In this document: piece after piece, positions 2,708-41,825 of the stretch | How positions within the stretch are numbered: the stretch's first letter is position 1 | Layout: the number at the start of each line of letters is the position of its first letter | Assembly (NCBI GenBank): GCA_951406725.2 | Contig: OX597815.1 | Location: 178,994,001 to 179,058,000 of the forward strand | Length of the DNA: 64,000 nt | Source of the DNA: Octopus vulgaris | Lineage: Eukaryota | Direction: 5' to 3' | The notes under the pieces: model-generated | Seen by the model: only the letters and a program-made list of their open reading frames with translations | What the model was told of the DNA's origin: nothing | Database searches by the model: none | Program-made: the position numbers and the translations under genes

Positions 2708-3128
2708 AAGGCGGCGAGCTGGCAGAATCGTTAGCATGCTGGGCGAAATGCTTAGCAGTATTTCGTCTGCCGTTACATTCTGAGTTCAAATTCCGCCGAG
2801 GTCGACTCTGCCTTTCATCCTTTCGGGGTCGATTAAATAAGTACCAGTTAGCACTGGGGTCGATGTAGTCGACAATCCGTTTGTCTGTCCTTGTTTGTCC
2901 TCTCTGTGTTTAGCCCCTTGTGGGTAGTAAAGAAATAGAAATAGGTATTTCGTCTGCTGCTATGTTCTGAGTTCAAATTCCGCCGAGGTCGACTCTGCCT
3001 TTCATCCTTTCGGGGTCGATTAAATAAGTACCAGTTACGCACTGGGGTCGATGTAATCGACTTAATCCGTTTGTCTGTCCTTGTTTGTCCCCTCTATGTT
3101 TAGCCCCTTGTGGGCAGTAAATAAATAA
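2708..3128 (+). mobile_element. SINE family M dimer (tail A + tail A)
   Basis: Head GGCGGCGAGCTGGCAGAATCGTTAGC (A box) ... GAGTTCAAATTCC (B box); core GTCGACTCTGCCTTTCATCCTTTCGGGGTCGA (resembles the Meta central domain, from memory); tail A; second unit restarts at GGTATTTCGTC (2944). Confidence 0.9.
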
Positions 3129-3512
3129 GATAATCAAAATGTATTCCGTTGAGAACAAGCAGTGGGATTATACATGCAATAAAGTTAGGTAGAAAAGCTG
3201 TTGGCTTTTGTGGACCCAGGGAGGAATTTGCTCACGTTTGTATATTGAATAGAACAATATTTATCTAACCAGGTCTGATTTTCCTTCGCTCTGGTTCTCT
3301 TTCGTTCAAATCATCTAATTTGAATATTACTGCCAGCCAAAGGAATATACTTAAAGACTCGGTTCCTGTATTTCTCCTTCAGCAAATTAATAACAAATGA
3401 CTGAAAAATGATGAGCTAGCCCCAGCTAGAATCTTTCTTAATAGCTTTCTCGTCGTAACTTAGAAAGTTTTTCGGGTTTGTTTACCAATATTATATATAT
3501 ATATATATATAC

Positions 3513-3866
3513 ACATCTTATAATTAAGGGCGGCTAAAGAAGGTTATTCTAAAGCCAATACACTGATTTATCCACTTATAATCAACTTGTTACAGGAATA
3601 TTGAACTGAAAGCGGGCAACTAACCTTTAGAAAATTTAAAACGAAATTTAAATTTCGTTTTAAATTTTCTAAAGGTTAGTTGCCCGCTTTCAGTTCAATT
3701 TTCCTGTAACAAGTGGATAAATCAGTGTATTGGCTATAGAATAACCTTCTTTAGCCCTTAATTATAAGATGTTTATACTTCAACCGTAAAGGTTTTTTTA
3801 ATATACTGCCACGCTTTTTGATGGAATCCTTTTCTGTAGAGAAAGGGACTTCATCCTATATTGTTA

Positions 3867-3868
<2 letters not shown>
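3513..3868. repeat. Spacerless fold-back palindrome (arms 3513-3649 / 3650-3772) plus ~95-bp tail, flanked by (TA)n; probable Penelope-like element end
   Basis: Direct reverse-complement match centred on ACGAAATTT|AAATTTCGT, with two small indels. Confidence 0.85.
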
Positions 3869-3901
<33 letters not shown>

Positions 3902-3983
3902 ATTCAAATAAACGAATAAAAGCGGACAGCATGAGTAGGTGCACAATGAATGAATTAGGTTGATGCTCGGTAAAAAAAAAGAG

Positions 3984-4020
3984 AGTTTGATGTTTCGAGC
4001 ATATCTCTTCGTCGGAAACT
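3984..4020 (-). ncRNA. Degenerate minimal type I hammerhead ribozyme motif
   Basis: AGTTT-CCGACGA-A-GAGA TAT GCTC-GAAA-CA-TC-AAACT; perfect 5-bp stem I, but core U4>C and one stem II mismatch. Confidence 0.5.
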
Positions 4021-4039
4021 ATATCTTTTGTCTTTTGTC

Positions 4040-4436
4040 TTTTATCTTTTACCTGTTTCTGTCATTTGACTGCGGTCATGCTGGGGCACCGTTTCGAAGA
4101 GTCTTAGTCGAATGACTCAACCCTGTATTTCTTTTCTTTTCTTTTTGTAAAGTCTGGTGCTTATTCTAAGGGTGTTTTTTTGTTGTTGCTGAACCGCTAA
4201 GTTACGGGGATGTAAACATGCCAACACTGGTTGGTAAGCGGTGTTGGGGGACCGAAACACAAACACACATACACACACACAACGGGCTTCTTACAGTTTC
4301 CCCTCTACCAAATCCACTCACAAGGCTTTGGTCGGCCCGAGGCTATAGTAGAACACACTTGCCCAATGTGCCACGTAGTGGGACTGAACCCGGAACCATG
4401 TGATTGCTAAGCAAACTTCTTACCTCTCAGCCACAC
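4040..4436 (-). mobile_element. tRNA-derived SINE family C (internal microsatellite)
   Basis: TGGCTGAGAGG A box, GGTTCAGTCCC B box, TTGGGCAAGTGT; 3' part CAGCATGACCGCAGTCAAATGACAGAAACAGGTAAAAAG; matches copies at 10.4, 21.2, 33.4 and 62.7 kb. Confidence 0.85.
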
Positions 4437-5504
4437 CGTGGATCAGTAAAGGAAATCGAATTCTCAGTAATTTTTGTAAAGGATCTTTAAAAACCATTAA
4501 AAATATATATTTGCTTTTATTACTTATCATTTTGCTTTAACACTTCTTTATATTCAACATTCCTTATGATACAGCCGGAATAATATCGTATTTCTATTGT
4601 GTTCAATGAATCAATAGGCAACACACATACACAAAATTATGTGAGAGAACGAATAACTCTTATAAGTAATATTTTACCGATTCTTTTTTTAAGTCAGTCT
4701 GTAAATATAGATAAAAATTATGTCGTTTGCGTCGTGTTTCAATTCTGGAAGATTTATGCTAGTCAGCGTTTATCGTGCTTTATCGCCTTGCTACATATTT
4801 CGTGTTATTTATCTTCTGCGATACTGTATCGAAGTTTTCTAAATACGATCATAGATTCATTCATTTATTATTACTATTCATTTCTGGTGACACAATTAAT
4901 AAATGGTTGAAGTCAGAATGTCGGCAGAGATGTTTATAAGAGAGGCATGTAGATTGAATGTCATTTTAGCGAAGTCTTTTATCATTGACTTTTGAGCATA
5001 TAAGAAGCATCACACACACACACACACACACACGTCCAATATTTGAATACCGTTATTTATAGCTTTATGTATATGCTTTGAGATTGGAAAAAAATATTTC
5101 ATATTCTTTCGAAAGTTTGTAAAATTCTTATGACGCCAGCAATGTATATATTTGTATATATAAACCATAAAAAAGTCAGGAGGTCTGAGAGGTGAATCTA
5201 TTTATTTAACCACGCCATTCTTAGGAGGAATATGGTCGTTTCACAGCCTTCATCATGTTATAATAGTTTTTGTGTATAATAAATTATTTTACGTGTTTGC
5301 ACTAATATGTATGCTTCGCATTATACAATAGAATTATACATAAACAAATCGATGCAGATAAAAAAAAGGCTATCTCATCTGGTCACCAGAATATCAAGTT
5401 ACACCAATGTTTCGACTCGGAGCATACATACGAAATTTTCTCTTTAGATAAACAACATATGCATGGAATTAGCTTGATTTGGTCATTAAAAATGAATATA
5501 AATT

Positions 5505-5625
5505 GTATATTTCTTTCTGGGGGTATGGCAAGGAGCCGAAACCGGCTACCACTCATATGGCCTTTCAGCAGCAACCCTCTCAAGCTAGGGTTTGACCACA
5601 GTCTCCAGCAGCTTCACATGGCCAT
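5505..5625 (-). mobile_element. Tc1/mariner-superfamily transposase fragment
   Basis: Minus translation VKLLETVVKP*LERVAAERPYEW*..SAPCHT resembles the 'WQQDSAPCH' catalytic region. Confidence 0.45.
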
Positions 5626-7296: not shown

Positions 7297-8192
7297 ATCT
7301 CATAAACAATGCGGTTTTATAATCTTTTATTCAAAATTAAGATAATCAAAATTCTTTATTAATCTAAAATATACTCTCCTCCATTTTCTACAATGCTCTT
7401 CTACCTATCTGTTAGACTTGCAAGGTCCCTCATCCAATATTAACTTGTCCGTGACGAAAAATACTCCTCCAGTACTGTTCTGACCTCGTCTACAGAATTC
7501 ATATTTTTTCCGTCCAAATGATTTTGAATACTGCAGATTAAAGGATAATCAGATGAAGCAATGTCCGGCGAATATGGTGGGTGGGGCATTGTTTCCCATT
7601 CAAACTGCTCCAGACTTTGGAATGTCATCCTCCCAGTATGTGGTTGAGCATTATTCCGATGGAAGAATACTTTTTGTCTTGAAACCAAGGATGGTCGTTT
7701 TTCTTCTAGTGCTAGTGTCGATGAATGGTTGAATGGCCAAATCCAAACTTCTCTGCTAGTTCCGCAACAGTTACGATGGGATTTTGTTCCACCAGGATTT
7801 GTAGGACGTCCTCGTCGAGCTCTACAGATCTTTCAGGGTGTGGGTCATCTTCTAGGCTGTAGTTTCCGGCTCGGAATTTTTGGAACCACCGTTGAGACTG
7901 GTTTACGCTTATTGTCCGATCCCCATATACTGCATTAATATTCCTCGCACTTTCCCTTGCGATGTTGCCTTTATTGAACTCATAAAGCAAAATATGCCGA
8001 ATATGCTCCGTTGTCACTTCCATTATAGCTTTGAAGAACTAACTTAAAATTTAACTGCACTCTTCAAAACTTGCACTAAGAATAACGACAATGTAAAATT
8101 ACTACCTGCTTTAATAGCTAGTTGATGCAATTTGCAATTGAAACTTAGTTCATGCAATTGAAAAAAAAAACGTATTATTTATGGGATGACCA
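7291..8192 (-). mobile_element. Internally deleted mariner (DD34D) transposon
   Basis: TIRs TAGTCATCTCATAAACAATGCG / CGTATTATTTATGGGATGACCA; ORF 7712-8023 is the N-terminal HTH (HIRHILLYEFNKG...QRWFQKFRAG); ORF 7440-7688 is the C-terminus (NAQPH, HPPYSPDIASSDY); the WVPHEL and first-Asp region is missing. Confidence 0.9.
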
Positions 8193-8240: not shown

Positions 8241-8662
8241 TGTGTACAGTGCTCAGGTGCACTACAACTCATCTAAAGTGTATATATAATCAGGTGTAGT
8301 TTCGGCGGATTTCGGAAAGCATGAGGGCCTTAAAGGATGCAGTGTCATGGCAGTCAACAACTGACGCAGGCAGTTTATTCCATGCTTCAGCAACCCTGAG
8401 CGTGAAAAAATGTTTCCGAAAGTCATGGGAGCTGTGTTGTTTTCTGACTTTGTAGGCATGTCCACGTGTGTTAGACACATGGAGATCAAAAAGGTGTTCA
8501 GTGTTGTTGTTGGTGAGGTGGTTGATAACCTTGTGGGTGTTTACCAAGTCCGTCGCCAGACGCCGGAGCTTCAGTGAATCCATGCCCAGGGAAACAAGGC
8601 GCTCAGAATATGGTAGGTGTCTGATGGAGGGTATGCGTTTGGTTGCACGTCTCTGGACAAAT
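8211..8662 (-). mobile_element. 5'-truncated CR1-clade LINE 3' end with (ATT)n tail
   Basis: VQRRATKRIP...YSERL..LGMDSLKLRR...TRGHAYK...FFTLRVAEAWNKLP is a typical CR1/L2-group RT C-terminus; short 3' UTR then (ATT)n. Confidence 0.85.
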
Positions 8663-9432
8663 TCCAGAGTTTATCGCCACTTCAACATGGCTGTTCCGTA
8701 GGAACCGACGTTACTACAATTTTAACTCCAGGGATGCGCCTCCTCCAGCTGGTTATTCGATGCAATCTGCACTCGATATATATTGCAAGCAGGGGAGTGA
8801 ACTCCTACCGTCTTCCAGCCATGAGACCACCAGACCGTACGGTTTCGTGCTATTTGTCTTCATCCTAGGTGATGGATACGCAATATATAGAAAAATATAT
8901 GGTTGTGATGTCAGTTTATAAGCAATACTTCTCAGTATAGTTACTGCTTTCAACTCTTGTAGAGATTCTCTAACTAGCTACTTTGCTTACACACACACAC
9001 ATACACATATATATATATATATAGACAGGGAGGGGAGAGGGGGGGAGAGAGGGCGGGAGAAATTGCTTATAGTAGAAGAGTCGATGGGGGATATAAAAAT
9101 CAAATACAAGTCCCATATTGATGCACAAGACATTAGAGGTTGAACGAGAATTGGATTGTGGTGCTTCGGGTGAAAGCTGTATGAGACGTGTGACAATGGT
9201 TTGGTTCAACAGATGTGTATGGTATAGAAATACAGGAAAGTAGAAAATGTTGTGATCTTGACAGAAAATGATTCTTCGAAAAAAAAAAAAGAAAAAAAAA
9301 GAAAAGAAATTGTGGAAGTTTTAGAAGTCCTTAGGTTGACTGATGAGTGATTGAATTATTTTAACAAGACCAGAGTGATGTGCTAGACTTGTCCGATAGC
9401 ATATGACATGGATCAATAGTTTGTACGATAAG

Positions 9433-9851: not shown

Positions 9852-10388
9852 TGTATATATATACTCAAGATGGAGGTGGAAATAGCATAGAAGTAAATCT
9901 AAGACTTTTCAATTTAAGAAGGAATTTAATAAAATGATTTGAAAATTATATAAAGAAAATGTTACCGGGTTCAATGATGAATCTCATCTTATCAAATATC
10001 AGAAAAAATTTATAAAAATTTCAAGTAGAAATAGTTTATCTTCGGTCTGGGGGGTCAAAAACATCTCTCTCTCTCCCTCTCTATATATGTATCTACCTAC
10101 CTACCTACGCACACATCCACACATATATTTACCTTCATATTTCAAGTCATAATTGAAGAAATGTCTTAACTGCATTTTCCAGTTTTGCATCAGTTTGATA
10201 AAACGCAAAATTTTGACATTTCTTTTGCACTGCTGAGCAGAGAACTTTTCATTCTAATAATAGTCTCATCATGTCAGAAGGTGTACACTAAATACTAATA
10301 AAATAACCTATCCCAACTAGCGAGGTTACGAAAGAGCAAATAAGTCATATCATGCTTGCTAACTGTAACCGATAAAGGAAAAAGATAA

Positions 10389-10551
10389 AGGCGTAGGAAT
10401 GGCTGTGTGGTAAGTAGCTTGCTTCCCAACCACATGGTTCTGGGTTCAGTCCCACTGCGTGGCACCTTGGGCAAGTGTCTTCTACTATAGCCTCGGACCG
10501 ACCAAAGCCTTGTGAGTGGATTTGGTAGACGGAAACTGAAAGAAGCCCGTC

Positions 10552-10623
<72 letters not shown>

Positions 10624-13610: not shown

Positions 13611-15226
13611 AAGTTATAAATTAGAAGAGAGAGGGAAGAAAGCAAGAAGCACAAGATGGCTGCATAACGTTGAAATTCAAGTATCATTTATAACCTGCAG
13701 CTAAGGGCTGGGGGAAGAGGTAGAGGTAATTTGATAACAAACAATGTTAGAATGATGATTTCAATAAACAAGGGCAAAACAAAACATTGAGTGGATATTA
13801 AATAAACCAAATTAGATAGTAATGAAAATGCAAGGCTCGAAGACACACACACACACACACACACACACACATTAAAAGACAATAAACCATATTCAGTTTG
13901 CGACAAAAATATGTAGAAAACCCGAAAAAAGCACAGAGAAAATATATTATCTATTTATATATTATTATATTATATTATAATGTATTATTAATGAAAATAC
14001 TAATCACACAGACATAAAAAAATTTCTTTGTCCGGAAAACAGTAAGAAAAGACAAATGACAAAAGCAGACGATAAACGTCAAAACAGGTTGGTTGCTCCA
14101 TATAAACTTTGCCAATCAAATATCGATCTTTTAAAATAATCCAGTCTTTGTCGGACACTTTACGTGTGTCTTTTCTCGATTGTCGATTTTTGTTCATACA
14201 ATTTTCACCACAGTATATTTTGCATTTTATGTGTTTTCCCGATCCATTACCCTTATCGTTGAAGGCATAAACCATACAAGCTTTATTCATCGTTATTTAA
14301 AATTTTCACCGTAATAATTATCTATATATATGTATACAATCATTAGCGCCCTCTGTATATACAAATGCGTGCATACAGGTACATGTATGTTAGGATGTAC
14401 GTGTTTATATTTGTGCATATATGGATATATACACATATGGGTTTGTAAATACGTGTGTTATGTACGTGCCCACGGTTGTATGTATATAGGGTAATTACTA
14501 TATTTGAAGCAGAAACATCCACACTGTTTTGTTTGGCTGTTCTTCTGCTTTTCGGACAAAGAAAATTATAATGCTTGTGTGATGAATACTTTGATTATTA
14601 ATATAATAATCCTTTCTACTACAAGCACAGGGCCTGAAATTTTGTGGGAGCGGCAAATAAAATAAAATATAATCCTCCAATTATAACGGGTATAACAAGA
14701 AAAATAATTATCATGAATGCATGGGCTGTGACGATAACATTATATAGTTGATCATCATTAAGAGGAGATCCTGGTTGTCCTAACTGTTTGAATTATTAGA
14801 CTTAAGGAAGTACCTATAAGTCCTGATCAAATTCCAAAAATGAAGTATAATGTGCCAAGATCTTTGTGATTTGTTGAGAATATTCATCGCATATAATAAT
14901 AATAAAGGAATAAAAATGATTGTTCCTAGTAAGTTAAAACACATGATTGATTTTATATTTGTTATTTTATTTTATTTGGGACGGTAAAGTCGACCTTGAC
15001 GGAAATTTGTTTTTGACTGATTGTTCGAATTCTTTGTAAAACTTTTTTGCGCTCAAAGATACCGTATTTGAGATGCGGCATTCCTGATTCTCTTGTATCT
15101 ACCCGCTCTTTTCTCAACTAGAAACCCTCACATTACTAAAGTAAAGTAACGGCTTGACTTGATGAGATTTTGTCAAGCGAGTGGATTAGACGAAGAGATT
15201 CAGTAGAATACTCTTTTGCAGAATCG

Positions 15227-15482: not shown

Positions 15483-15529
15483 AGAAACACTCGTTGTTGC
15501 TTTTGATGGTAGTGGTAGTAGTAATATAT

Positions 15530-15762
15530 ATTTCTTTATTGCTCACAAGGGGCTAAACACAGAGGGGACAAACAAGGACAGACAAAGGGATTAAATCGAT
15601 TACATCGACCCCAGTGCGCAACTGGTACTTAATTTATCGACCCCGAAAGGATGAAAGGCAAAGTCGACCTCGGCGGAATTTGAACTCAGAACGTAACGGC
15701 AGACGAAATACGGCTACGCATTTTGTCCGGCGTGCTAACCTTTCTGCCAGCTCGCTCGCCTA
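15530..15762 (-). mobile_element. SINE family M monomer, tail A
   Basis: Full head, core and tail TCCCTTTGTCTGTCCTTGTTTGTCCCCTCTGTGTTTAGCCCC. Confidence 0.9.
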
Positions 15763-17200: not shown

Positions 17201-17667
17201 GTGGAGATTGATAATGACACACAATGCCAGTTGTACGCATTGAAATGAAGTGGCAGAACATATAGCGAGTTAGTGTTGAATTCTGATTTTTTTCTGAGTT
17301 CGAATTCTATTGGTGGTCTTTTGTACTAATGAAAATCTTAAAATATAAACCATTAATACAGGAGTGGCAATTTAATCGACACCATTCCTTCCTCTACAAA
17401 TAATCTGTTCGGCGTTAATGTAAGAAATATAAATCCAGTTTAGGTCTTCTGTATACCATTTCAAATGTTATTAGTCAAATGTGGACGTCCATCTCTTCAG
17501 GATGAATTGCTGCTGCTACCGTTTTTGTTGTGTCAGCTTTGCTGGAACAATCACCAAAGGCATAGAACCAATTTAACGCAGGGGTACACTGGATAGTTGC
17601 CATGGGTAGAGTGCTGGGTCCAGGGGCTCAATGTTAGGCTACGTATGCTACACTTCACCCCAACCAC

Positions 17668-17908
17668 ATGGGGTCGATATAATCGACTTTATCCGTTTGT
17701 CTGTCCTTGTTTGTCCTCTCTGTGTTTAGCCCCTTGTGGGTAGTAAAGAAATAGGTATTTTTTCTGTCTTTACGTTCTGAGTTGAAATTCTGCCGAGGTC
17801 AACTTTGCGTTTCATCTTATTGAGGTCGATAAAATAAGTACCAGTTGAGAAATCGACTTAACTCTTCCCCGAAATTGCTGGCATTGTGCCACAATTTGAA
17901 GCCAATAT
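17668..17908 (+). mobile_element. SINE-M composite: 5'-truncated tail-A unit + second unit
   Basis: Junction AAAGAAATA|GGTATTT at 17753/17754. Confidence 0.85.
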
Positions 17909-19207
17909 TAATATATGGTCAGGGCGAAGAATTTCACTGCTCCTAATTTCGCTGCCTCTTCTCAGAGATTAAGTAGCTAAACAGTGCAGCGACTTCTGAC
18001 CTTTTTATCAATGGCATTCATTACAGAGAATCAATAATCCACCGAGAACCCTTTTCAAAGATTTAAATAATAAAACAATATTTCCCCTAAATTTTCTACT
18101 TTAACATTTGACATTTTCTGGAGAAATTTTTCCTGTTTTTGGTGTTGTATTAAGTTTGTGTCGTAACGGTTGCGACATACTGTATCAAATATTTCGTTCA
18201 GTTCCTTTCTAAAGCTTTGTGTTTTATATCAGAAATATATGTTCAAAATGGCGGAAGTTTGTAAAGAAGTTGTTGGAAGATTTGTTTCGAAAGAAAACAT
18301 TAAAAGAAATGAGAAAGATGTGAATTTAAACAAACATAATTTCTTCGAAAATGTGACGCATTGCATAACATACGTACGCACGCATACACAAACATGGAAA
18401 CACCCTCGCACATATAATTTACATATACAAATAAGTTTATAAAAAGAAATCTGTGTGTGTGTGTGTGTGTGTAATATGCGTACATATTGTCTCTCGTCCT
18501 CTCCTAATATCTCTTTGTTTTTACATTCGTGTAACACTGTTTTGTTATTGATCCTTTTTCTTTTCGCCTCCGTCTTGCTATGTTGTTGTGTGTTTCAATC
18601 ATTGTTAGATTTCCTATACATAAATCTAATTCTGCTTGATATATTTCCAAATTTTCTCCTCCTATTTTTCTTATTTCTTGCCTAGAAACACTAGCAAAAT
18701 ACATTTTCCTCCTGCGCTATTCTAATCCAGCTTAATCTGCTCCACTGTTCACAATATATACATTTCTCTTTTCCTTTCGTTCTCATGGATTTTGGAAATA
18801 TTTTGTTGAAACTCCAAATCTTAAATTTTTCTTCTGCTTAAACATTTTTATAATTATTTTAACAATATTCTGTTTAGTTTTCTTGTAAGAATGTGCGGTT
18901 GTCATTTCAATATTTCTACAGGCTCTTCTTGGATTTCTTTCGCTTTCCTTACTTATATCCTTTAACTCCTCCTTTCAATCTTGTCCATATAATTTGATAA
19001 TATAAAAGACAAGATCATGCACACAGACATTAGAATTTCGTTGTCTCATAATTTTCCTTTTATCGTTTGCCTTATATTTTACCTTATTTCAGTTACTGGA
19101 CAGCGGCTATGCTGGAGCAAAGCCTTGAAGGATTTAGTCGAACAAATCAACCCCAATACTTAGTTACAGGGACGTAAACATACCACCACCGGTTGTCAAG
19201 TAACAAT

Positions 19208-19474
19208 GAGGAATTCTTTGAGGTTTGAATAATTCGCTTCTGGAAACACATGTGTTTTGTTCATCATCCTTAGGTAACCCTTATTCAGGGAGGGACCTTT
19301 TGAGCGGGATGGGCTTCTCGGCCTGAGGAAAGATTCTAACTGGGCCCCACCTGCAATGTCATGCTCGATATATGTTGATAGGAGATCACCATGTCGCGCA
19401 GTCATGATGGGTATACTGGGCTTCGTATATTTATACCGCAGAGTCACTTCGATGGCATGGGTTGCTCTCTCACT
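19208..19474 (+). mobile_element. 3' half of the non-coding (AAT)n-associated element
   Basis: Matches 56240-56559 and ends CTCTCTCACTC(AAT)n. Confidence 0.8.
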
Positions 19475-19484
19475 CAATAATAAT

Positions 19485-19876
19485 AATCCTTTCTACTAAA
19501 GGTACAAAGCCTGAAATTTTGGGAGCGGGGACTAGTCGATTACATCGATCACAGTGCGTAACTGGTACTTAATTTATTGACCCCGAAAGGATGAAAGGCA
19601 AAGAAGACCTCGGCGGAATTTGAACTTAGAACGGCAGACGAAATACCGCCAAGCATTTCGTCCAGCGTGCTAACGATTCTGCCAGCTCGCCACCTTAATA
19701 ATAATAATAATAATCCTTTCTATTATAGGCACAGGGCCTGAAATTTGAGGGAAGGGATTAAGTCGATCCCAGTGTTTCACTGGTACTTAAGTTATCGACC
19801 CCGAAACGATGAAAGGCAAAAGTAGACCTCGGCGGAATTTGAACTCAGAACGTAGCGGCAGATGAAATACCGCTAA
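19485..19876 (-). mobile_element. Two tandem SINE-M copies (tail B) separated by (AAT)n
   Basis: Core motif and tail found twice. Confidence 0.85.
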
Positions 19877-20445
19877 AATTATGATAATAAAGCTTACGCC
19901 ATCTTTTTTTCACCACATAAGCAATTCTAATTACATATTCAATGCTAATTGCATTAAATACCATAAGTCTATATTTTCACACACACACATCATATATTTG
20001 TGTGTGCGGGGCTTCAGAAATCTTTACCAAATATAGACCATACTAATATCTTAATTTTACTTAACTTTTCATTTAGTTTGCCAGTTATCGTAATTAAATA
20101 TCGGACACTTCTAATCAAATGACTTATCTAAATGAGAAACCTTATTATGAGCATTTAATTTTACGAAAAAAAATCGAAATTCAAAATCGAAATTTTTTTA
20201 CAGTGATTGTCTGCGAAAGAAGGTCGACTTCGGGAATTTTCAAAAAGGAGTCATGTTTAATGCTTTCAATATTTTGTTATTTTGTTTCTATTTCGTTCTA
20301 CCAAAGAAAGAAACAGGTTTTCTTTCATCTTACAATGTCTAACTGCTCTTATGAAGAACCTCCCTCGGCGAGAATTGGTGCCACTTTTGGTCACACAGTT
20401 TTTGTTTGATTAATCTACCATATCTTAATTTTTTTGCCATAGAGA

Positions 20446-20790
20446 CATCATCATCATCATTTAACGTCTATTGTTCATTCTGGCATGGGTTGGACGGGGC
20501 TGGTAAGCTGGAAGGTTGCACCAGATTCCAGTCTCTGATTTGGCATGGTTTTCTTTGGCTGAATAACCTTCCTAACATCAATCACTCAGTGAGTGTGATG
20601 GGTACTTTTACGTGCCACCGGCAGGGGTGACATTGGCGTGACACCGGTATCTTCCACGACTGCGATTTTGCTCGACTTGACAGGCCTTCTTCTCAAGCAC
20701 GACATAATGCCAGAGTTCTGTCATTGTCTCCGTGAGGTCCAACACTCGAAAGGAACTCAGCTGCTTTGCCTCCGTGAGGCCCAGTTATGT
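20446..20790 (-). mobile_element. RTE-type 3' end (SINE or non-autonomous LINE) with (GAT)n tail
   Basis: Minus strand reads TTGATGTTAGGAAGGTTATTCAGCC...CCGTCCAACCCATGCCAG...CGTTAAATGATGATGATG. Confidence 0.55.
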
Positions 20791-21229
20791 ATCTAATATT
20801 ACATTACATGAGTATACTTATAAATAACTTCCTTATTTATGCGTAGTTTAGGTGTAGTCACATTTTACTAAAGGTTGCAGGGCTGGCTGAATCGTAAGCA
20901 GGCCTGGTAAAATACGTTTTTGTTCTGAGTTCAAATTCTGCGTATTAGACTTTGCCTTATCACTCGGGGTCGATAAAATAAGTATCAGTTGGACGCTTAG
21001 GTCAATGTAACTGACCAATCTTATCCCCCTACATTGCTAAAATTTGAACCCAGTATTACAATAACTTAGATAGGTTTCGGCCATATAGGCCCAGGCCGTG
21101 TCTAACTTAATAGCACCACCGGGTGAAGTCTTTTAGATCGTGATTCACACCTTAGTTACATACGGGGCACCATGGCCCACCTTAGCAAAGTGTTATTGTT
21201 GTTGGAGACATATCCGGGTGTAGGAGGTT

Positions 21230-21625
21230 CTTTTATTTGTTTCAGTCATTTGACTGCGGCCATGCTGGAACACTGCCTTTAGTCGAGCAAATCGACCTCA
21301 GGACATTATTTGTAAGCCTAGTGCTTATTCTATCCTTCTCTTTAACCGAACTGCTACGGGGACGTAAACACACTAACATTGGTTATCAAGCGATGTTGGG
21401 GGGACAAACACAGACACAAACATATACACATACACAAACATATACACATACACATATTTACATATATATATACGACGGGCTTCTTTCAGTTTCCGTCTAC
21501 CAAATCCACTCACAAGATTTTGGTCGGCCTGAGGATATAGTAGAAAACACTTGCCCAAGGTACCGTGCAGTGGGACTGAACACGGAACCATTTGGTTGGT
21601 AAGCAAGCTACTTACCACACAGCCC
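21230..21625 (-). mobile_element. SINE family C
   Basis: Near full-length match to 10389-10843. Confidence 0.9.
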
Positions 21626-22081
21626 CAACTCTTCCAGGATTTGTTTTGAGAAATTTGTCCAGAGAATTTTTGAATTTTATGGGATCCACTTTCGTTTTGA
21701 TGTATTTTTGTATAATATTAAAGAGAGCTGAACCGGTTGAGGTAAAGTAATTGTGACGTAATGTTGTTATGTATTTTGAGCTCAATTTTTGTAGTAGGCG
21801 GATAGCATGGGGCCAAGTCTTGGGTGGATTTTAAAATTGATGCCAACATCATTTGAGCAATATTGATGGAATATTTTCCACATCACACAAATGATGTAGC
21901 GCTCATGGTGGCGTTGAATATATTTTTAAATAACTTCTTTATTAATGAGTAATTATGGTGTAATTTAAAGGAAGCGTCGCTACTACAAAAGAACTGCCAT
22001 AAAGAAAGCAAGGCACTTGATCATGTGACTTGTTTATCCGCTAACTTTTGATCCTCAACATAAAGACTGAACATTATTTTT

Positions 22082-22472
22082 TACAGGGTACAGGGCCCGA
22101 AATTTTTGGGGAGGGGGGGCAATTGAATAGATCGACCCCAGTACGCAGCTGGTACTTAATTTATCGACCCCGAAAGGATGAAAGGCAAAGTCGACCTCAG
22201 CGGAATTTGAACTCAGAACGTAAAGACAAACGAAATACCTATTTCTTTACTACCGACAAGGGACTAAACACAGAAAGGACAAACAAGGACAGACAAACGG
22301 ATAAAGTCGATTACATCGACCCCAGTGCGTAACTGGTACTTATTTAATCGACCTCGAAAAGATGAAAGGCAAAGTCGACCTCGGCGGAATTTGAACTCAG
22401 AACGTAACGGCAGACGAAGTACCACAAAGCATTTCGCCCGGCGTGCTAACCTTTCTGCCAGCTCGCCGCCTT
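22082..22472 (-). mobile_element. SINE-M composite (tail A + tail B)
   Basis: Junction AAAGAAATA|GGTATTTCG at 22240/22239. Confidence 0.9.
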
Positions 22473-23533: not shown

Positions 23534-24570
23534 GTAGTACACTAATGTGACAAGTTGGAAGAAAATACAAACGTTTATAAAGAGAATGAAGTCCGTTTTC
23601 ATTGAAAATCTCTTGTCCAGTGCTTATAGTAGTCCACCACTAAGTGTGTAGAAGGAGGAAGGCAAAGGGAGCAAAGCTTGCGAGAAAGAGGTTTGCTTGT
23701 GTGTGAGGTGTGAGTGTGTCTATGTATGTGTTTGTGAGTTGTATGTTTGTGTTCGTGTGTGAAAAACTCTCTTCGTAACTAAAAGGTAAAACTGTGTGAG
23801 AACGACCGAAGAGATTCGCCGTTTCTTTAATTTTTTTTTAACAGGTATCGCGAATACTTAGCCGTGTTAAAGCCGAATTAAGTCACCGAAATTAGAATTG
23901 TTTGGGATTATATAGATTCACATAAGATGGCGAATTTGGAAAAGAACATGAAGACCAAAGTTTTAATTCCTGGTCACAAAACCATTGCATACTTCCTTCT
24001 TGCTTTTCTTGGAAAAGTTTTCCTCATTTTGTGGCGTTGTTGAAGTAAACGCTGTCCTAATTCTTTACTCTATAACATATTTAATTTAGTACCTTTATCA
24101 ACTATAAACATTGTATATACATTAGCGGTATTTCGTCTGTCGTTACTTTCTGAGTTCAAATTCCGCCGAGGTCGACTTTGCCTTTCATCCGAAAGGATGA
24201 AAAGCAAAGTCAACCTCGGCAAATTTGGACATCTTTGAAGGATATTCCAATACCTTCTAGAAAAGAATATATTTTGAAACTTATTAATATTAAGAATTTT
24301 TAAAATTTTAACTTTTGAATTTTATATATTTTTTATTAATTAATTTTATTTCTATGTATTGGTTTATGATTTTCACTGTTTGAGTTGCCTAATAGTGGTT
24401 TTATCTCTAATTTATATAATATATATATTTATACTATAAAATTAGATTTAATCCTAAATCTAATTTTTCCCTGTAAGTTTGGATTTACTCCCTAATTTTA
24501 TTATATATATATATATATATATATATAAACACACACGCACACACACACACATGTATGTATGTATGTATGG

Positions 24571-27243: not shown

Positions 27244-27476
27244 GATTTCTTCATTGCCCACAAGGGGCTAAACATAGAGGGGACAAACAAGGACAGACAA
27301 AGGGATTAAGTCGATTATATCGACCCCAGTGCGAAACTGGTACTTTATTTATCGACCCCGAAAGGATGAAAGGCAAAGTCGACCTCGGCGGAATTTGAAC
27401 TCAGAACATAACAATAGACGAAATACCGCTAAGCATTTCACCCGGCGCGCTAACGTGTCTGCCAGCTCGCCGCCTT
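27243..27476 (-). mobile_element. SINE-M monomer, tail A, abutting (TA)n
   Basis: Full head, core and tail. Confidence 0.9.
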
Positions 27477-28382: not shown

Positions 28383-28560
28383 TAAGGCGGCGAGCTGGCA
28401 GAAACGTTAACGCGACGGGCGAAATGCGTAGCCGTATTTATCGGGGTCGATAAATAAAGTACCAGTTTCGCACTGGGGTCGATATAATCGACTTAATCCT
28501 TTTGTCTGTCCTTGTTTGTCCCCTCTGTGTTTAACCCCTTGTGGGTAGTAAAGAAATATA
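28383..28560 (+). mobile_element. Internally deleted SINE-M, tail A
   Basis: Head joined directly to TCGGGGTCGATAAA...tail A. Confidence 0.8.
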
Positions 28561-29870: not shown

Positions 29871-30062
29871 TTACTAGGTTGTCTGCTCAGACTTGGGTTC
29901 CCTGCAATCCTATAGTTCAAGTGGCTGCTATTTCTAGTATATCTATACTTGAGCCTGAATTAAGGAGGGTCTGTGTTTAGATATGTGTCAGCTTTGATGA
30001 GGAGTATTATTGACCTTGGAACTTGTCCCTTTCAAATTAATACTTTAATATATACATAGGTA

Positions 30063-30458
30063 TAAGGCGGCGAGCTGGCAGAAACGTTAGCATGCTGGGC
30101 GAAATGTTTAGCGGTATTTCGTCTGTCTTTACGTTCTGTGTTCAAATTCCGCCGAGATTGACTTTGCCTTTCATCCTTTCGGGGTCGATTAAATAAGTAC
30201 CAGTTGCGGACTGGGGTCGATATAATCGACTTAATTCGTTTGTCTGTCCTTGTTTGTCCTCTCTGTGTTTAGCCCCTTGTAGGTAGTAAAGAAATAGGTA
30301 TTTCGCCTGTCTTTACGTTTAAATTACGCCGAGGTTGACTTTACTTTTCATCTTTTCGGGGTCGATAAAATAAGTACCAGTTGCGTACTGGGGTGGATCT
30401 AATCGACTGGCCCCCACTCCCCAAAATTTCGGGCCTTTTGCCTAGAGTAGAAAAGAAT
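30063..30458 (+). mobile_element. SINE-M composite (tail A + tail B)
   Basis: Junction AAAGAAATA|GGTATTTCG at 30296/30297. Confidence 0.9.
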
Positions 30459-30501
30459 ATATACATAGGTGTATATGTATTCACATACACGCGCGCATAT
30501 G

Positions 30502-35328: not shown

Positions 35329-36056
35329 ACTGGCAGAATCGTTAGCACGCCGGGCGAAATGCTTAGCGGTATTTCGTCTGCGTTACGTTGTGAGTTCAAA
35401 TTCCGCCGAGGTCGACTTTGCCTTTCATCTTTTCGGGGTCGATAAATTAAGTACCAGTTACAAACTGGGGTCGATGTAATCGACTTAATACCTATGTCTG
35501 TCCTTGTTTGTTCCCTCTGTGTTTAGCCCCTTGTGGGTAATAAAGAAATAGGTATTTCGTCTGCCTCTGCGTTCAGATTCGGCTGAGGTCGACTTTGCCT
35601 TTCATCCTTTCGGGATCGATAAATTAAGTACCAGTTGAGTACTGGGGTCGATGCAATCGACTTAACCCCTCCCAAATTCCAGGCCTTGTGTCTTTACGTT
35701 CTGTTTTCAAATTCCGCCGAGGTTGACTTTGCCTTTCATCCTTTCGAGGTCGATAAATTAAGTACCAGTTGCGTATTGGGATCGATGTAATCGACTTAAT
35801 CCCTTTGTCTGTCCTTGTTTGTCCCCTCTGTGTGTAGCCCCTTGTGAGCAGTAAAGAAATAAGGAACGTTAGCACGCCTGGCAAAATGCTTAGTAGTATT
35901 TCGTCTGTCTTTATGTTCTGAGTTGAAATTCCGCCGAGGCCGACTTTGCCTTTCATCCTTTCGGGGTCGATAAATTAAGTACCAGCTGAGTACTGGGGTC
36001 GATGCAATCGACTTAACCGCTCCCAAATTCCAGGCCTTGTGCCTATAGTAGAAACG
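35329..36056 (+). mobile_element. SINE-M tetramer (tails A, B-partial, A, B)
   Basis: Four consecutive cores; first junction AAAGAAATA|GGTATTTCG at 35550/35551. Confidence 0.9.
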
Positions 36057-36838
36057 ATTCACACAATGAACGCATATATTATTTCTATTTCATAGTTGAA
36101 AATCTTGTTTTCACATTTTTGAAACTCAGTTTCGCTCCTATTATTTCATTTCGTCTGCATCTCCATCTTTCTTGATTCAATCACCGATAGAATTCCAACG
36201 CACAATTCTGCTTCCAACGCTTTTCTCATTCTATTTTTACTCGTTCTCCAAGAAGCACTAGAAAAATCACATTGTTATCTCTTCTCATCGTAATCAGAAC
36301 TATTGCCTAAAATGTTCTCTCTCTTTTTTTTCCTTTTCATTCATTTTCGAGTAAATTTGGGCGAAGGATAATAGTTGTCCATTTTTCTGTATTTTTCTGT
36401 TAAAACAATTTTTTCAAACAATCTTTCTTGTAATTTTGTTACTAAAGCATCAGGTTTTATTATTGATATTCCTTCACGTTCTTGTGAGATTTCCGACAGC
36501 CCTTAGCTCGACGCTTTATGAAATCCGCCAGTTTGCCTGATTTGCGTAAGTCTTTTTTTTCGTTTAGTTCCGAGAACCCATAATAAGGATGTTGTTGTCC
36601 AAATATATTTTATCTTTTTTACTTTTACTTGTTTGAGGAATTAGCTTGCGGCCATGCTGGGGTACTTATTTATTTAAAGCCTGGTACTTACTCTATCGAT
36701 GTATATAGCCGAACCTCTAAGTTATTGGGACATAAACACACCAACACCAGTTGTCAAGTATTGGTGGGGACAAACATAGAAACAAAGACAAACATAGATA
36801 CATACATACATACATACATACATACATACATACATACA

Positions 36839-37540: not shown

Positions 37541-37587
<47 letters not shown>

Positions 37588-38137
37588 ATTAAAGTAAGCA
37601 CATGAATATGAAACAAGGTGGGAAGAAATAGTACTCGAATACCGGAGGTTGAGTTATATGGTTTACCATTAAAGCTGCAAAAACATCACAAAAAAATCTA
37701 TTACTCGGAGTTACGAACGGGAACGTGAAACTCTGAGTAACAGTTTTTTTGTGCACTTGCCCAAGGTGTCACGCAGGGGAACTGGACCCGGAACCATGTG
37801 GTTGGGAAACAAGCGACTTACCACACAGCCACTCCTGCGCCTATATATATATGTTTGTGTGTGTGTGTATGTCTGTGTCTGTGTTTACAACCCCACCATC
37901 ACTTGACAATATAGCGGTTCGGCAAAAGAAACCGATAAAATAAGTACTAGACTTACAAAGAAAAGTCCTGGGATCGATTTGTTCGACTAAAAGGTGGGGC
38001 TCCAGCATGGCCGCAGTCAAGTGATTGAAGCAAATAAAAGAATTAAGAACCTTGTTTTAGTTCCATATTGCACAAGCATGAGAAACGATAAAACCTTTTT
38101 ATGTGCAAGACAAGGGAATTACTCTCAAGAAATTATT

Positions 38138-38803
38138 TTCTAGTCTAGGCACAAGACCCGGAATTTAGCGGGAGGGTGCCAGTCGGTTAGATCGGCGCCA
38201 GTACGCAACTGGTACTTGATATATCGACCCCGAAAGGATGAAAGGCAAAGTCAACCTCAGCGGAATTTGAACTAAGAACGTAAAGACAGACGAAATACCT
38301 ATTTCTTTACTACCCACAAGGGGCTAAACACACAGAGGACAAACAAGGACAGACAAACGGATTAAGTCGATTATATCGACCCAAGTTCGTAACTGGTACT
38401 TATTTAATCGACCCCGAAAGGATGAAAGGCAAAGTCGACCTTGGCGGATTAAGTCAATTATATCGACCCCAGTGCGCAACTGGTACTTAATTTATCGAGC
38501 CTGAAAGGATGAAAGGCAAAGTCGATCTCGGTGGAATTTCAACTCAGAACGTGATGGCAGACGGAATACCTATTTCTTTACTACCCACAAGGGGCTAATC
38601 ACAGAGAGGACAAACAAGGACAGACAAACGGATTAAGTCGATTATATCGACCCAAGTTCGTAACTGGTACTTATTTAATCGACCCCGAAAGGATGAAAGG
38701 CAAAGTCGACCTTGGCGGAATTTGAACTCAGAACGTAGCGGCAGACGAAATACGGCAACGCATTTCGTCCGGTGTGCTAACGTTTCTGCCAGCTCGCCGC
38801 CTT
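38138..38803 (-). mobile_element. SINE-M multimer (four cores)
   Basis: Junctions AAAGAAATA|GGTATT at 38571/38570 and 38300/38299. Confidence 0.9.
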
Positions 38804-39322
38804 ATTACTCTCAAGAAATTGAAGGTGATCACTCGCATTCGAACAGAAATATGGGATCAGGAGTTTGGCACAAAAGTTAAACTAAAATAAAAAAACAAAA
38901 ACAATCGACTATATAAAATGGGATTGAATATTAAAATATTATCAAGAAGGAATTGGGGAGACGGATTGGTGGTAATGATGGTGGCGCCCTGGTATTGCTA
39001 CGAATTTTTTTTTGCGCTGGAAGATGTTAAAAATTATCTATATAAACTGCCGAACCTATGCAGGTGTTCAACCCAACAAGAGTGAGATATTTGATAAAAA
39101 AAGACACACACAGAGTTAGACAATGTCGTATCTCACAAAATGTGAATGTTTTTACGTTGGCGGGTATAAAAAAAAAATGAATGACTGAATAACGACAAAC
39201 AGAAGAAGCGAAAAATTGATTAGTTTTCCAGGTGGTAAAATGCAGCGCACTGAACTGAATTGATATCTCAGGAAATCATAATTTAACTCGTAAATAAATT
39301 AAGACAAGAAAAAAAATGTTTA

Positions 39323-39646
39323 ACTGCTGGTCGAAATAATCTCTCTGCGTGGGAAAACATAGTTACTATGATCACTGAAATATTTTGTTACGGAAAAACC
39401 GACACACAGAATCACTCATAAATTTTTGTTTGTTGAAATTGTTTTCTGCAGCATAATACAGTTCTATATTTAAGAGATGAGGAATTATGTACATTATTTA
39501 CATTATTTACATTTGACGAATATCTGTTCTCATTTTGTTCGTTGTTAACACAATGTTTCGGCTGATATATACTCCAGCATTCATCAGGTGTCTTGGGGAA
39601 TTTCGAAATTGCGTTCTCATTCCTAAGGTATTTTGTTGTTGTTGTT

Positions 39647-39678
<32 letters not shown>

Positions 39679-39715
39679 TGTTGTTGTTGTTGTTGTTGTT
39701 GTTGTTCTTCTTCTT

Positions 39716-39797
<82 letters not shown>

Positions 39798-40357
39798 GGG
39801 TCACTGCATAGAATCGAACTCAGCAGTGACCTGAATAATAATAATACTAATAATAATAATGATCAGTGGCTCTCGTGGCTTCTGATTTTAACTGATTAGA
39901 AGTGTTAACATGTACATTGTACATTGTTTTGTCTTGGTATAAAAGATGGGTTACAGCAAATATTCTGCTCGATACCACAGATTTGTTTGTCAATTGTTTG
40001 ACCATAACCAGTTGAGCTAGTCCCTTGGTGGCTGACGATATGTGCATCTTTGATCACGAGCAGAAGTAGTGGGGGAGCATCAAAGCCATGTGTTGAGAAG
40101 GATTCTTTGAGGTTTGAATAATTCACCTTTGGAAACATGGGTGTTTCGTTCAGCATCCTTAAACAACCGTTATTCAGGGACCTTTTGAGCGGGATGGGTT
40201 ACTCGACCAGAAGAAAATTCTAACTGGGCCCCACCTGCAAGGTCATGTGATGTTTATCGTGATATGAGATCATCATGTCGTGCACATATGGTTGTGATGC
40301 ATGTGCCTAGTGTACATTTTACCCCAGTGTCACTTTGATGGCATGCACTGCTCTCTC

Positions 40358-40389
<32 letters not shown>

Positions 40390-40757
40390 TAATAATGATA
40401 ACAATGATAATGATAATGATAATAATATCAACATCGAAAAATAACTTAGGAATGAGAACCCAGGTTCGAAATTTCCCCAAGACACCCGATGAAGGCTGGA
40501 GGGTATATCAGCCGAAACGTTGTGTTAACAACAAACAAAACTAGGACAGATATCCGTCAAATGTAAATAATGTAAATAATATGATAAATGTACATAATTC
40601 ATCATCTCTTAAATATAGAACTGAAGAATGTATTACTGCTGGTCGAAATCAGTCTCTTTGCGTGGGAAAACTTAGTTACTATGATCACGAAAATATTTTG
40701 TTACGGACAAACCGACACACAGAATCACTCATAAATTTTTGTTAGTAAAAATTGTTT
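39323..40757. repeat. ~122-bp direct repeats (39323-39444, 40635-40757) enclosing an inverted pair of hammerhead-bearing segments (39459-39634, 40437-40623)
   Basis: Direct comparison; hammerhead motifs at 39547-39592 (-) and 40481-40526 (+). Confidence 0.85.
39861..40357 (+). mobile_element. Non-coding (AAT)n-associated element
   Basis: Matches 55993-56559; (AAT)n on both sides. Confidence 0.85.
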
Positions 40758-40815
40758 GATGCAAGTTTGACTGTGAGTCATGACGTGGGTATACACGTCT
40801 GGTGTAAAATGGTAT

Positions 40816-41197
40816 TGGAAGCGCAATCGCCCAGTGGTTAGGGCAGCGAACTCGCGGCCGTAGGATCGCGGGTTCGATTCCCAGACCGGGCGTTGTGAGT
40901 GTTTATTGAACGAAAATACCTAAAGCTCCACGAGGCACCGGTAGGGGGTTGCAGCGAACCTTGCTGTACTCTTTCACCACAACATTCTCTTACTCTTTCT
41001 TCCTGTTTCTGTTGTACCTGTATTTCAAAGGGCCAGCCTTGTCATATTCTGTGTCATGCTGAATCTCCCCCGAGAACTACGTTAAGGGTACACGTGTCTG
41101 TGGAGTGCTCAGCCACTTGTACGTTAATTTCACGAGCAGGCTGTTCCGTAGATCAGATCAATTGGAACCCTCATCGTTGCAACCGACGGAGTGCCAC
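40816..41197 (+). mobile_element. Full-length SINE family D, tail variant 2
   Basis: A and B boxes; ends CGTTGCAACCGACGGAGTGCCA. Confidence 0.9.
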
Positions 41198-41454
41198 GAT
41201 AAAATGATATTATGCAAATAAATAGTTGATTGTGGTAATCTAACAATAACTTATTGCAGAAATACATGTTAACACAGAAACGCATTCCGTACTACTCGGA
41301 CGTAGGTTCGATACTTGGTATTCACTGTTGAACTACCGTCTATTAAACCAACACGCGTCGGACTTTTCTAAACTAAGCACAAGACAGACAAAATACCGCT
41401 AAACATTTCGCCCGGCTTGCTAACGTTTCTGCCAGCTCGCCACCATTTAAAGAA

Positions 41455-41825
41455 TCTTTTCTACTCTAGGCAAAAGGCCCGAAATTTTTGGGGAGGAGTC
41501 AATCTATTAGATGGACCCAAGTACGCAATTGGTACTTAATTAATCGACTCCGAAAGGATGAAAGGCAAAGTCGACCTTAGCGGAATTTGAACTCAGAACG
41601 TAACGGCAGACGAAATACCTATTTCTTTACTACCAAACAAGGATAGACAAACGGATTAAGTCGATTACATCGACCCCAGTGCGTAACTGGTGCTTATTTA
41701 ATCGACCCCGAAAGGATGAACGGCAAAGTCGACCTTGGCGTAATTTGAACTCAGAACGTAGCAGCAAACGAAATACGGGTACGCATTTCGCCCGGCGTGC
41801 TAACGTTTCTGCCACCTTGCCGCCA
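41455..41825 (-). mobile_element. SINE-M composite (shortened tail A + tail B)
   Basis: Junction AAAGAAATA|GGTATTTCG at 41620/41619. Confidence 0.9.

Follow-up and report, generated by a model that had tools for sequence, protein, structure and literature searches.

The window analysed here, a stretch of 64,000 nt from Octopus vulgaris (contig OX597815.1), contains seven arrays of an abundant octopus tRNA-type SINE whose units meet repeatedly at one position inside the SINE head (Table 1). The element has no protein-coding capacity and carries motifs that, judged by eye, are A- and B-box-like; ARAGORN detected no tRNA gene. Ohshima and Okada (1994) reportedly described the octopus SINE families OK, OR1 and OR2, and the present element is probably among the families already annotated. 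Its body motifs are absent from the Meta/MESC supplement files searched, which were all but one file per paper. SINEs account for 11.6% of the O. vulgaris genome, and the annotation includes a tRNA-Deu SINE class (PMC13282606); in the available portions of its text and supplement no mention of dimers or of the junction was found. Likewise, no self-targeting SINE or GGTATT junction was found in the literature searched, a scope outside which lay most subscription papers, Repbase and Dfam.

Table 1. SINE units of the arrays, tail-A monomers outside them and an example of an unused target in the window
Feature	Position	Strand	Remarks
Upstream unit	2708..2943	+	Head, body and tail A1; GAAATA present twice at the tail end (2943/4)
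Downstream unit	2944..3127	+	Head-less, A-type body, A2-like tail end; one rare body variant in common with its upstream unit, 10/181 differences between the two
Tail-A2 monomer	15529..15761	-	Control without junction; 20-nt TSD
Tail-A1 piece, 85 nt	17669..17753	+	Head-less; 0 private substitutions
Downstream unit	17754..17905	+	Tail C; decayed and internally deleted, 14% from its nearest neighbour
Downstream unit	22087..22239	-	Subtype B', tail cut short; TSD looked for, none
Upstream unit	22240..22472	-	Head, body and tail A1
Tail-A2 monomer	27245..27476	-	Control without junction
Tail-A2 monomer	28383..28558	+	Control without junction; internally deleted
Upstream unit	30063..30296	+	Head, mosaic body (B'-type 5' part) and tail A1
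Downstream unit	30297..30455	+	Subtype B'
Upstream unit	35330..35550	+	Head 5'-clipped; A2-like tail, the sole non-A1 tail with the junction
Downstream unit	35551..35688	+	Subtype B''; tail broken by next unit at TGT microhomology
Tail-A2 unit	35689..35861	+	5'-truncated
Unit after atypical junction	35862..36057	+	Partial head, B'' body and tail
Terminal downstream unit	38135..38299	-	Subtype B'; 20/119 differences from unit at 38570
Second partial copy of A1 donor	38300..38448	-	2/149 differences from 38804-38571
Middle unit	38449..38570	-	Tail-less A-type body; nearest is monomer 15761; next unit joined at TCCG microhomology
Upstream unit	38571..38804	-	Head (G-C hairpin variant), body and tail A1
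Downstream unit	41455..41619	-	B' tail, yet GCCGTT body mark
Upstream unit	41620..41826	-	Head (G-C variant), A1 body and internally deleted tail A
Unused target (example)	50147..50172	+	11-bp stem and TAGC loop, head of intact tail-C monomer; junction position 50161/50162
Tail-A1 monomer	57130..57359	-	In non-SINE DNA, TSD GGTAACC; only A1 copy outside an array

The initial annotation listed eight junctions at which a tail-A end is followed by an internal SINE position, and all eight were confirmed (2943/4, 17753/4, 22240/39, 30296/7, 35550/1, 38300/299, 38571/0 and 41620/19). The next unit had been said to start at exactly GGTATTT; this holds for seven junctions, and 38571/0 reads GGTATTC. 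Of the 14 tail-A ends in the window, eight run into GGTATT(T/C) and one into GGTAACC; at 35861 a partial SINE head follows, and the remaining four lead into other DNA. Chance is excluded for the junction, because GGTATTT occurs at only 33 of 128,000 positions when both strands are counted; the eight junctions need not be independent events. In the head an 11-bp stem closes a TAGC loop, and the junction point lies at the 3' edge of this loop, with an uncertainty of 1 nt since the first G possibly comes from the terminal GAAATA repeat of the tail. The junction at 35861, rightly singled out as atypical, joins tail A2 to a partial head that starts at about head position 13. A supposed partial junction at 57130/29 is instead the right copy of a 7-nt TSD, GGTAACC, in non-SINE DNA (57367-57361 and 57129-57123).

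The junction is tied to a single young subtype of the tail, A1 (7/7 A1 tails vs 1/6 others, p=0.005). All eight A1-type copies of this one window are followed by GGTA, seven of them inside a SINE; the same number sit in arrays, and none lies at a site without GGTA. The TSD of the lone A1 copy outside a SINE begins with GGTA, for which the background is 0.003 per site. Several intact monomer targets in the window carry no insertion.

The arrays have two to four units of different subtypes, as had been claimed, and the downstream tails include, besides the A and B tails named there, a third type, tail C, at 17754. None of the seven arrays has a doubled head, and whole-element tandems split by a TSD were not seen. 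Two arrays are bracketed as a whole by a TSD, that at 30063 by one of 15 nt (30047-30061 and 30456-30470) and that at 38804 by one of 17 nt (38820-38804 and 38134-38118). A 6-nt TSD at 2708 is doubtful and none was found at the other four arrays, including that at 17669, upstream of which there is also no head. Five paired comparisons of units from the same locus each gave 11-18 differences over about 119 body positions. In the 38804 array both junctions come from one donor, the two copies of which carry different downstream units; this pattern fits a read-through dimer RNA primed at the internal junction, with one jump at TCCG.

There are four types of downstream unit (four B', two A, one C and one B''), and a single type of second unit was not found. 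A mark at +14 to +18 varies among these types, and four of the eight downstream units depart from GGTATTTCGTCT within 11 nt past the junction, so that any crossover sits at the junction. B' accounts for 4/8 downstream units vs 0-1 of about 17 window monomers (p 0.006-0.02). Private substitutions are about four times as frequent in downstream as in upstream bodies (21/927 vs 4/731, p=0.004). The four A1-B' loci alone give 11/469 vs 2/476 (p=0.012; p 0.004-0.04 under other settings). The downstream unit is also farther than the upstream unit from its nearest neighbour in 6/6 loci (p=0.016). In contrast, distances from the own consensus at the four A1-B' loci show no clear difference (upstream 21/476 vs downstream 27/469). 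A comparison of head ages, in which heads (9/270) resemble downstream units (32/927) and are unlike upstream bodies (9/731, p=0.03), was rejected as confounded, because young monomers show an equal head excess (10/184 vs 10/471).

If A1 copies were inserted into resident SINEs, the heads had been expected to group with the downstream units. They do not (Mantel r=-0.12, p=0.65, 6 loci), and the comparison of heads with upstream bodies gave r=0.18 (p=0.30, 6 loci); the monomer control of this Mantel test gave r=0.63 (p=0.005). At 38804 and 41824, head and upstream unit have the G-C hairpin variant and body marks in common. Because these heads are linked to the upstream unit, under self-insertion they would have been overwritten by cDNA.

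Some further data come from related organisms. Contig depth, which is not copy number, was summed for organism E relative to organisms B, C and D and scaled by unique flank. The ratios from this crude measure are 0.12 for tail A, 0.34 for the A1 body bin and 0.52 for the B' bin, with 0.53 and 0.49 in two B bins and 0.54-0.71 in three bins of another SINE for comparison. By the same crude measure tail A is about fourfold more abundant in B, C and D than in E, without a matching rise of B' bodies; the pattern may also reflect amplifications of E's own. The top loose end at 22236 in E is a head, and headed B'-type monomers occur in O. bimaculoides records (P0002, P0004). At 17669, E keeps the tail-C side, including the tail end and right flank of 17754..17905, and the left contig leaves the window sequence at 17671 with 17 unlike letters; an empty orthologous monomer is only hinted at here. 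The whole array at 22472 may be absent in E, since the flank contig departs 11 nt before the head. Among the 15 contig joints listed of about 10,757, in which SINE-to-SINE matches dominate, no locus-specific skip was readable. A joint from 17753 to 21229, considered as a second target, was rejected: there tail A stands beside the 3' end of another SINE family. Junction and body motifs had no match in genome, viral and metagenome contig collections. Antisense SINE peptide searches (3, 3 and 1 hits; 16 in an exhaustive search) gave no unambiguous exact junction and too few hits for a linkage table.

Recurrent joining at one site, with downstream units that appear older, has support from the private substitutions, the four downstream types, the depth ratios, the two copies of one donor at 38804 and the TSD beginning with GGTA at 57359. 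The initial annotation proposed site-specific insertion into resident SINEs, a proposal favoured by the fixed joint and by the older, varied downstream units but not by the heads, which fail to group with those units. We put at about even the chance that the young A1 subfamily spreads largely by homology-assisted insertion into resident copies of its family at the 3' edge of the hairpin loop. Pol III would transcribe through an existing array, giving an A1 RNA that carries GGUAUU... beyond its tail. A LINE reverse transcriptase would then start at the end of tail A on a nick at GC/GG of a genomic SINE, where the read-through sequence of the A1 RNA pairs with the primer. The cDNA would finally anneal to the homologous upstream body or head, which would account for the seamless left junction and the single visible head. 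Since every insertion would recreate the junction, the process would feed itself. Shorter matches, for example GGTA at 57359, may be used occasionally, and some arrays may later also move as whole dimers. The nick could be made by a LINE endonuclease with sequence specificity, or it could arise structure-specifically at the tip of the hairpin. A Tx1 endonuclease had been suggested, and nothing in the analysis connects the SINE to one; within the window the sole matches to tail A are SINE tails, and the LINE at 53388-55950 does not match it in its 3' UTR.

The evidence for self-insertion of A1 includes the array at 17669, where a piece with 0/85 private changes appears to lie on a C unit that has decayed and of which E has the tail and flank. 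Since this array has no head, a deletion at the target would be needed as well. Several observations stand against self-insertion: the heads are not grouped with the downstream units, the G-C heads at 38804 and 41824 are linked to the upstream units, own-consensus distances are alike, B' is enriched downstream, several intact monomers are spared and the 22472 array may be missing as a whole in E. A broader reading, to which we give a little under an even chance, is that a SINE subfamily homes on members of its own family. The conserved head hairpin and read-through RNA would direct target-primed insertion to one site, and headed monomers would have been turned into arrays genome-wide after the lineage parted from that of a related octopus. 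A dedicated sequence-specific endonuclease would be unnecessary.

A possible but rather less likely explanation is that of an ordinary complex SINE. The junction would have arisen once or a few times, dimeric masters (mainly A1-B') would move as a unit, and template switching and gene conversion, both acting in the shared body, would later have swapped the downstream parts. The variety of units had been held to argue against one dimeric master; the four downstream types bear out the variety, but since the family is visibly mosaic, variety alone leaves dimeric masters possible. Dimeric SINEs are common (PMC3531059, PMC10702118). The tie of the junction to one subtype, the over-representation of B' downstream, the similar own-consensus divergence of both halves, the link of head and upstream body at 38804 and 41824, and the resemblance of the headless 17669 array to a 5'-truncated dimer are all in keeping with dimeric masters. 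So are the TSDs around the whole arrays at 30063 and 38804, although both models predict these. The excess of private changes in the downstream units is harder to reconcile with masters of this kind. Furthermore, non-B' units differ within 14 nt of the junction, so that crossovers would need to cluster there, and across organisms B' depth does not rise alongside tail A.

The units could also have been joined as RNA, which we regard as unlikely. A SINE RNA would be cleaved in the hairpin loop, which leaves a 5' end fixed at G. From this end the reverse transcriptase would jump to an A1 RNA at its 3' end, or ligation would join the two RNAs; the chimera would then insert elsewhere. The position of the junction precisely at the 3' edge of the loop agrees with such a cut, and the tail end is complementary to the 3' arm of the stem, so that the tail's GAAAUA could pair with UAUUUC two bases away as a tether. 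Joining of this kind predicts older and varied downstream units, heads linked to the upstream body and 5'-truncated chimeras, and a double jump could explain the middle unit at 38570, which has no tail. Jumps are, however, expected in a minority of insertions (an argument made in PMC4494074), yet 7/8 A1 copies are in arrays and none lies at a site without GGTA. Downstream bodies should also rise with A1, and the depth ratios show no such rise. Finally, there is no matching ribozyme family: Rfam gave no match at gathering score in the window and two chance-level matches in 30040-30480, and fitting an HDV-like or hammerhead core to the junction by eye failed. Stalling of the reverse transcriptase at the hairpin was also discarded, as the enzyme would halt at the stem base and not in the loop.

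Duplication of local DNA by unequal exchange or replication slippage, or an error of assembly, is suggested by the near-exact internal repeat in 38804 and the rare variant common to two units at 2708, but is very improbable. The within-locus differences largely refute it as a general cause. The unlike tails, the contigs of other organisms that contain the joins between flank and element at 17669 and 22472, and a common breakpoint that no direct repeat explains also speak against it.

If A1 multiplies by insertion at one site of its older relatives, a large set of harmless, promoter-bearing targets is open to it. Homology-guided insertion by a non-coding RNA, akin to that of engineered R2 systems, would then occur naturally and without a dedicated target gene. 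Octopus repeat libraries would then fuse units of different age into false dimers and distort age landscapes. If the dimeric-master reading holds, the element is an ordinary complex SINE.

Read-through pairing is a feature of R1/SART elements. R2 proteins make seamless 5' joins by cDNA annealing and use off-target sites complementary to the primer (PMC11371274). The proposed octopus process resembles R2 in carrying target sequence past the RNA 3' end, in its fixed 3' junction, in a seamless 5' junction made by homology and in rare off-target sites sharing only primer-complementary bases. Unlike R2, the octopus element is a non-coding SINE, and its target would be its own family and not rDNA.

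Crocodilian SINEU-3, with its Tx1-Mar LINEs, similarly has a strong site preference in another repeat and forms tandem copies (PMC4494074). However, the target of SINEU-3 is a DNA transposon, its tandems consist of whole copies split by TSD and its Tx1 partners have the same preference (PMC4494074), whereas the octopus SINE has one head per array, would target itself and has no partner found in the window. The fixed order, constant junction and TSD around the pair recall complex SINEs such as Alu and B1-dID (PMC3531059, PMC10702118), but in the octopus SINE the A-box half of the head is missing from the second unit, of which there are four types and which appears older than the unit before it. 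In the SINE arrays of the clam Scapharca broughtonii (PMC11481361) and in squamate sSat satellites (PMC10702118), a headed first unit is likewise followed by units cut at one head position. Those arrays repeat a single element, and their middle units lack part of the tail. Arrays of similar units like those of sSat were not found in the window, where a near-exact repeat occurs only in 38804; in contrast to both systems, octopus upstream units keep the full tail and are joined to partners of different subtypes.

The SINE in question lies in AT-rich animal DNA with abundant microsatellites. It is about 230 nt long. A tRNA-type head, in which A- and B-box-like motifs can be recognised by eye, precedes a shared body and one of three tails (A, B or C). 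The alignment comprises 38 units from the window; beyond these, profile searching yielded just a handful of old fragments. Antisense translations of the SINE match Octopus bimaculoides records, which marks the DNA as octopus-like, and headed monomers of the B′ type occur in that species (peptide records P0002 and P0004).

All eight junctions claimed in the initial annotation, in which a tail-A end is joined directly to GGTATT(T/C) of a headless downstream unit, were found at their positions, in seven arrays (named here by their start), and the junction is a real feature. The 14 tail-A ends in the window are followed by GGTATT(T/C) in 8 cases, GGTAACC in 1, a partial head in 1 and other DNA in 4. 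Because GGTATTT occurs at only 33 of 128,000 positions on the two strands of the window, chance is ruled out, but the junctions may have a common descent. The downstream units are of four types (B′, B″, A and C) and 4 of the 8 diverge already within 11 nt, so the partner sequence begins at the junction. The cut position is ambiguous by one base, since tail A finishes in a GAAATA repeat (doubled at 2943). The site at 57130/29, previously taken for a partial SINE junction, is actually a 7-nt target-site duplication (TSD) within non-SINE DNA. The O. bimaculoides peptide P0018 appears to represent the tail and a partial second GAAATA repeat, without the junction.

Tail A splits into two subtypes, A1 and A2-like. 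GGTA comes next after 7 of 7 full A1 tails, two of which derive from a common donor, vs 1 of 6 A2-like tails (p=0.005). The junction is also present in the copy at 41824, whose body is of the A1 type and whose tail is deleted. In the SINE head, the junction coincides exactly with the 3′ edge of a TAGC loop on an 11-bp stem, the 3′ arm of which is complementary to the tail end GAAATA. Of 12 heads, 6 close the loop with U-G, 3 with G-C and 2 with U-A, and in 1 the pair is broken; a single inherited change probably accounts for the G-C form. In some copies (2708-2800 and 38710-38804) the initial 88 nt can be folded into a single long rod (z=-2.5 and -5.0); other SINE copies score close to shuffles. 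At 35861/35862, tail A2 is joined to the head near position 13 (between GGC and AG), and peptide P0011, as read, appears to show tail A meeting the head at almost that position, possibly a second preferred site.

Only one A1 copy lies in non-SINE DNA, and its TSD begins with GGTA (background 0.003); hence A1 RNA is capable of priming on DNA. Such RNA would either carry GGUA beyond its tail or be delivered to GGTA sites. Since the window holds 368 GGTA sites, 4-7 bases are too few to account for the finding that 7 of the 8 hits lie in SINEs; extra specificity would be needed, from longer pairing with read-through RNA or from a nick at the hairpin tip. According to PMC11371274, R2 proteins perform both 3′-end primer pairing and seamless 5′ joining through cDNA annealing. 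We therefore prefer homology-assisted self-insertion of A1 over its rivals and give this reading about an even chance of being correct.

The main rival, dimeric masters with reshuffling, can coexist with self-insertion, and as the explanation of the arrays we consider it conceivable but rather doubtful. B′ accounts for 4/8 downstream units vs 0-1 of about 17 monomers, an excess in favour of either a dimeric master or preferential targeting of young copies. Entire arrays are enclosed by TSDs of 15 nt at 30063 and 17 nt at 38804, as both models predict. The expectation of the initial annotation that, under targeting, heads group with the downstream unit was not borne out by Mantel tests, which have little power at 6 loci (r=-0.12, p=0.65 for head vs downstream body; r=0.18, p=0.30 for head vs upstream body); in 12 control monomers, head vs own body gave r=0.63 (p=0.005). 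At 38804 and 41824, head and upstream unit agree in the G-C variant as well as in two body marks, unlike 30063, where a B′-type mark is common with the downstream unit. The 17669 array is headless.

The shared body is about twice as diverse in downstream units (0.132 vs 0.068 upstream, a set that includes the A1 monomer at 57359; permutation p=0.004), and the nearest neighbour is more distant for the downstream unit in 6/6 loci (p=0.016); both measures are sensitive to subfamily sampling. Private substitutions, those confined to a single unit, amount to 21/927 downstream vs 4/731 upstream (p=0.004), and 11/469 vs 2/476 in the four A1-B′ loci (p=0.012; 0.004-0.04 across four settings). Weighing against unequal age of the halves, no clear difference was seen in own-consensus distance at the same four loci (27/469 downstream vs 21/476 upstream) or in an earlier count of rare differences (12/378 vs 6/384).

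Four of 24 runs, consisting of contigs and representing organisms B, C, D and E with one run apiece, served for comparison with 17250-22800 at 85% likeness. At 17669 the headless join is present in B and C, and the D contig stops at 17667. The E contig matches up to 17671, followed by 17 unlike letters; E also contains the tail-C end and the right flank. No private change was seen over the 85 nt of the A1 piece, whereas 2-3 would be expected if it were older than the split from E (chance 0.04-0.14). The E contig and the unchanged A1 piece hint at a resident C monomer; an old dimer that later lost its head by deletion also fits. At 22472 the head is present in B, C and D, and E diverges 11 nt ahead of it, a pattern that does not discriminate between the models. 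Among loose ends at 22236, a head is one of the top six in E, and the top six of each other run include none. Summed contig depth per bin was scaled by a unique flank and expressed as E/(B,C,D). This ratio was 0.12 in the tail-A bin and 0.34 in the A1 body bin, compared with 0.52 in B′, 0.53 and 0.49 in B, 0.54-0.71 in another SINE and 1.1 in the C bin. Had A1 spread in the form of A1-B′ dimers, B′ depth should have risen alongside A1. These ratios carry moderate weight, because contig depth is not equal to copy number, bins are blurred by contigs that fit multiple copies, and an independent amplification of B′ may have taken place in E.

Joining of RNAs at a cut hairpin loop, at whose edge the junction lies, is an unlikely origin. 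No ribozyme family matched in the window at the Rfam gathering score, and 30040-30480 gave two matches at chance level.

The 38804 array runs head-A1, tail-less A-type body, partial A1 and B′. Its two A1 copies differ at 2/149 positions and the bodies after them at 20/119, with a TCCG microhomology at the middle join. We infer a single read-through event: most simply, an RNA comprising head-A1 and a read-through A-type body would have been primed on a B′ element at the RNA's own internal junction, and synthesis would have jumped back once along this RNA. The alternative here is local duplication followed by conversion of the whole body; for the junctions at large, local duplication is very improbable.

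The proposed involvement of Tx1 is not supported, and no LINE end in the window matches tail A. Recently active LINE families in O. vulgaris include L1-Tx1, Dong-R4, RTE and CR1 (PMC13282606, Table 1). The one long LINE in the window is near-intact, with R2 proteins as its best relatives of solved structure, and it has a C-terminal CCHC and a PD..D-like motif, with (TAA)n runs flanking both sides. We take these motifs and the (TAA)n target to fit the R4/Dong group. Other elements are listed in the table. A second kind of array is made of whole headed monomers, head to tail, linked via (ATT)n tails; in the one at 17195, an 18-nt TSD takes in the start of the next head. The composite SINE family combines a tRNA-type unit, a microsatellite and a module containing CTTAGCGG and resembling the 3′ body of the studied SINE. 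The fold-back fragment is possibly a snap-back product.

Other elements in the window
Element	Position (strand)	Remarks
Headed-monomer (ATT)n arrays	49898-50515 (+), 19877-19480 (-), 17195-16770 (-), 41619-41375 (-), 2233-2590 (+)	
Another abundant composite SINE family	21229-21624, 10381-10621, 62870-63076, about 33590	
SINE fragment folding back on itself	24122-24231	Inverted copy from 24190
Tail-B ends, upstream body scarcely or not recognisable	56616-56690 (-), 14604-14653 (-)	
Mariner (Mos1-like) transposase fragments	7440-8038 (-)	HTH_48 domain
Open frames resembling LINE ORF2 C-terminus and LINE ORF1 region	8290-8670 (-), 48140-49299 (-)	Pfam match absent in both frames tested
Long LINE	53388-55950 (+)	RT domain; LINE also delimited as 53388-55793
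Fragments similar to the long LINE	59493-61620 (-)	

A literature search found no SINE homing into its own head; Repbase, Dfam and the 1994 octopus paper may bear on novelty and on the family name. The junction does not appear in the available annotation passages and supplement for O. vulgaris (PMC13282606). Target-specific SINEs (SINEU-3, PMC4494074), dimeric SINEs (PMC10702118, PMC3531059) and, in clam, arrays with head-truncated units (PMC11481361) are already known. Beside these systems, the A1 arrays would probably represent a new form of homology-guided insertion.
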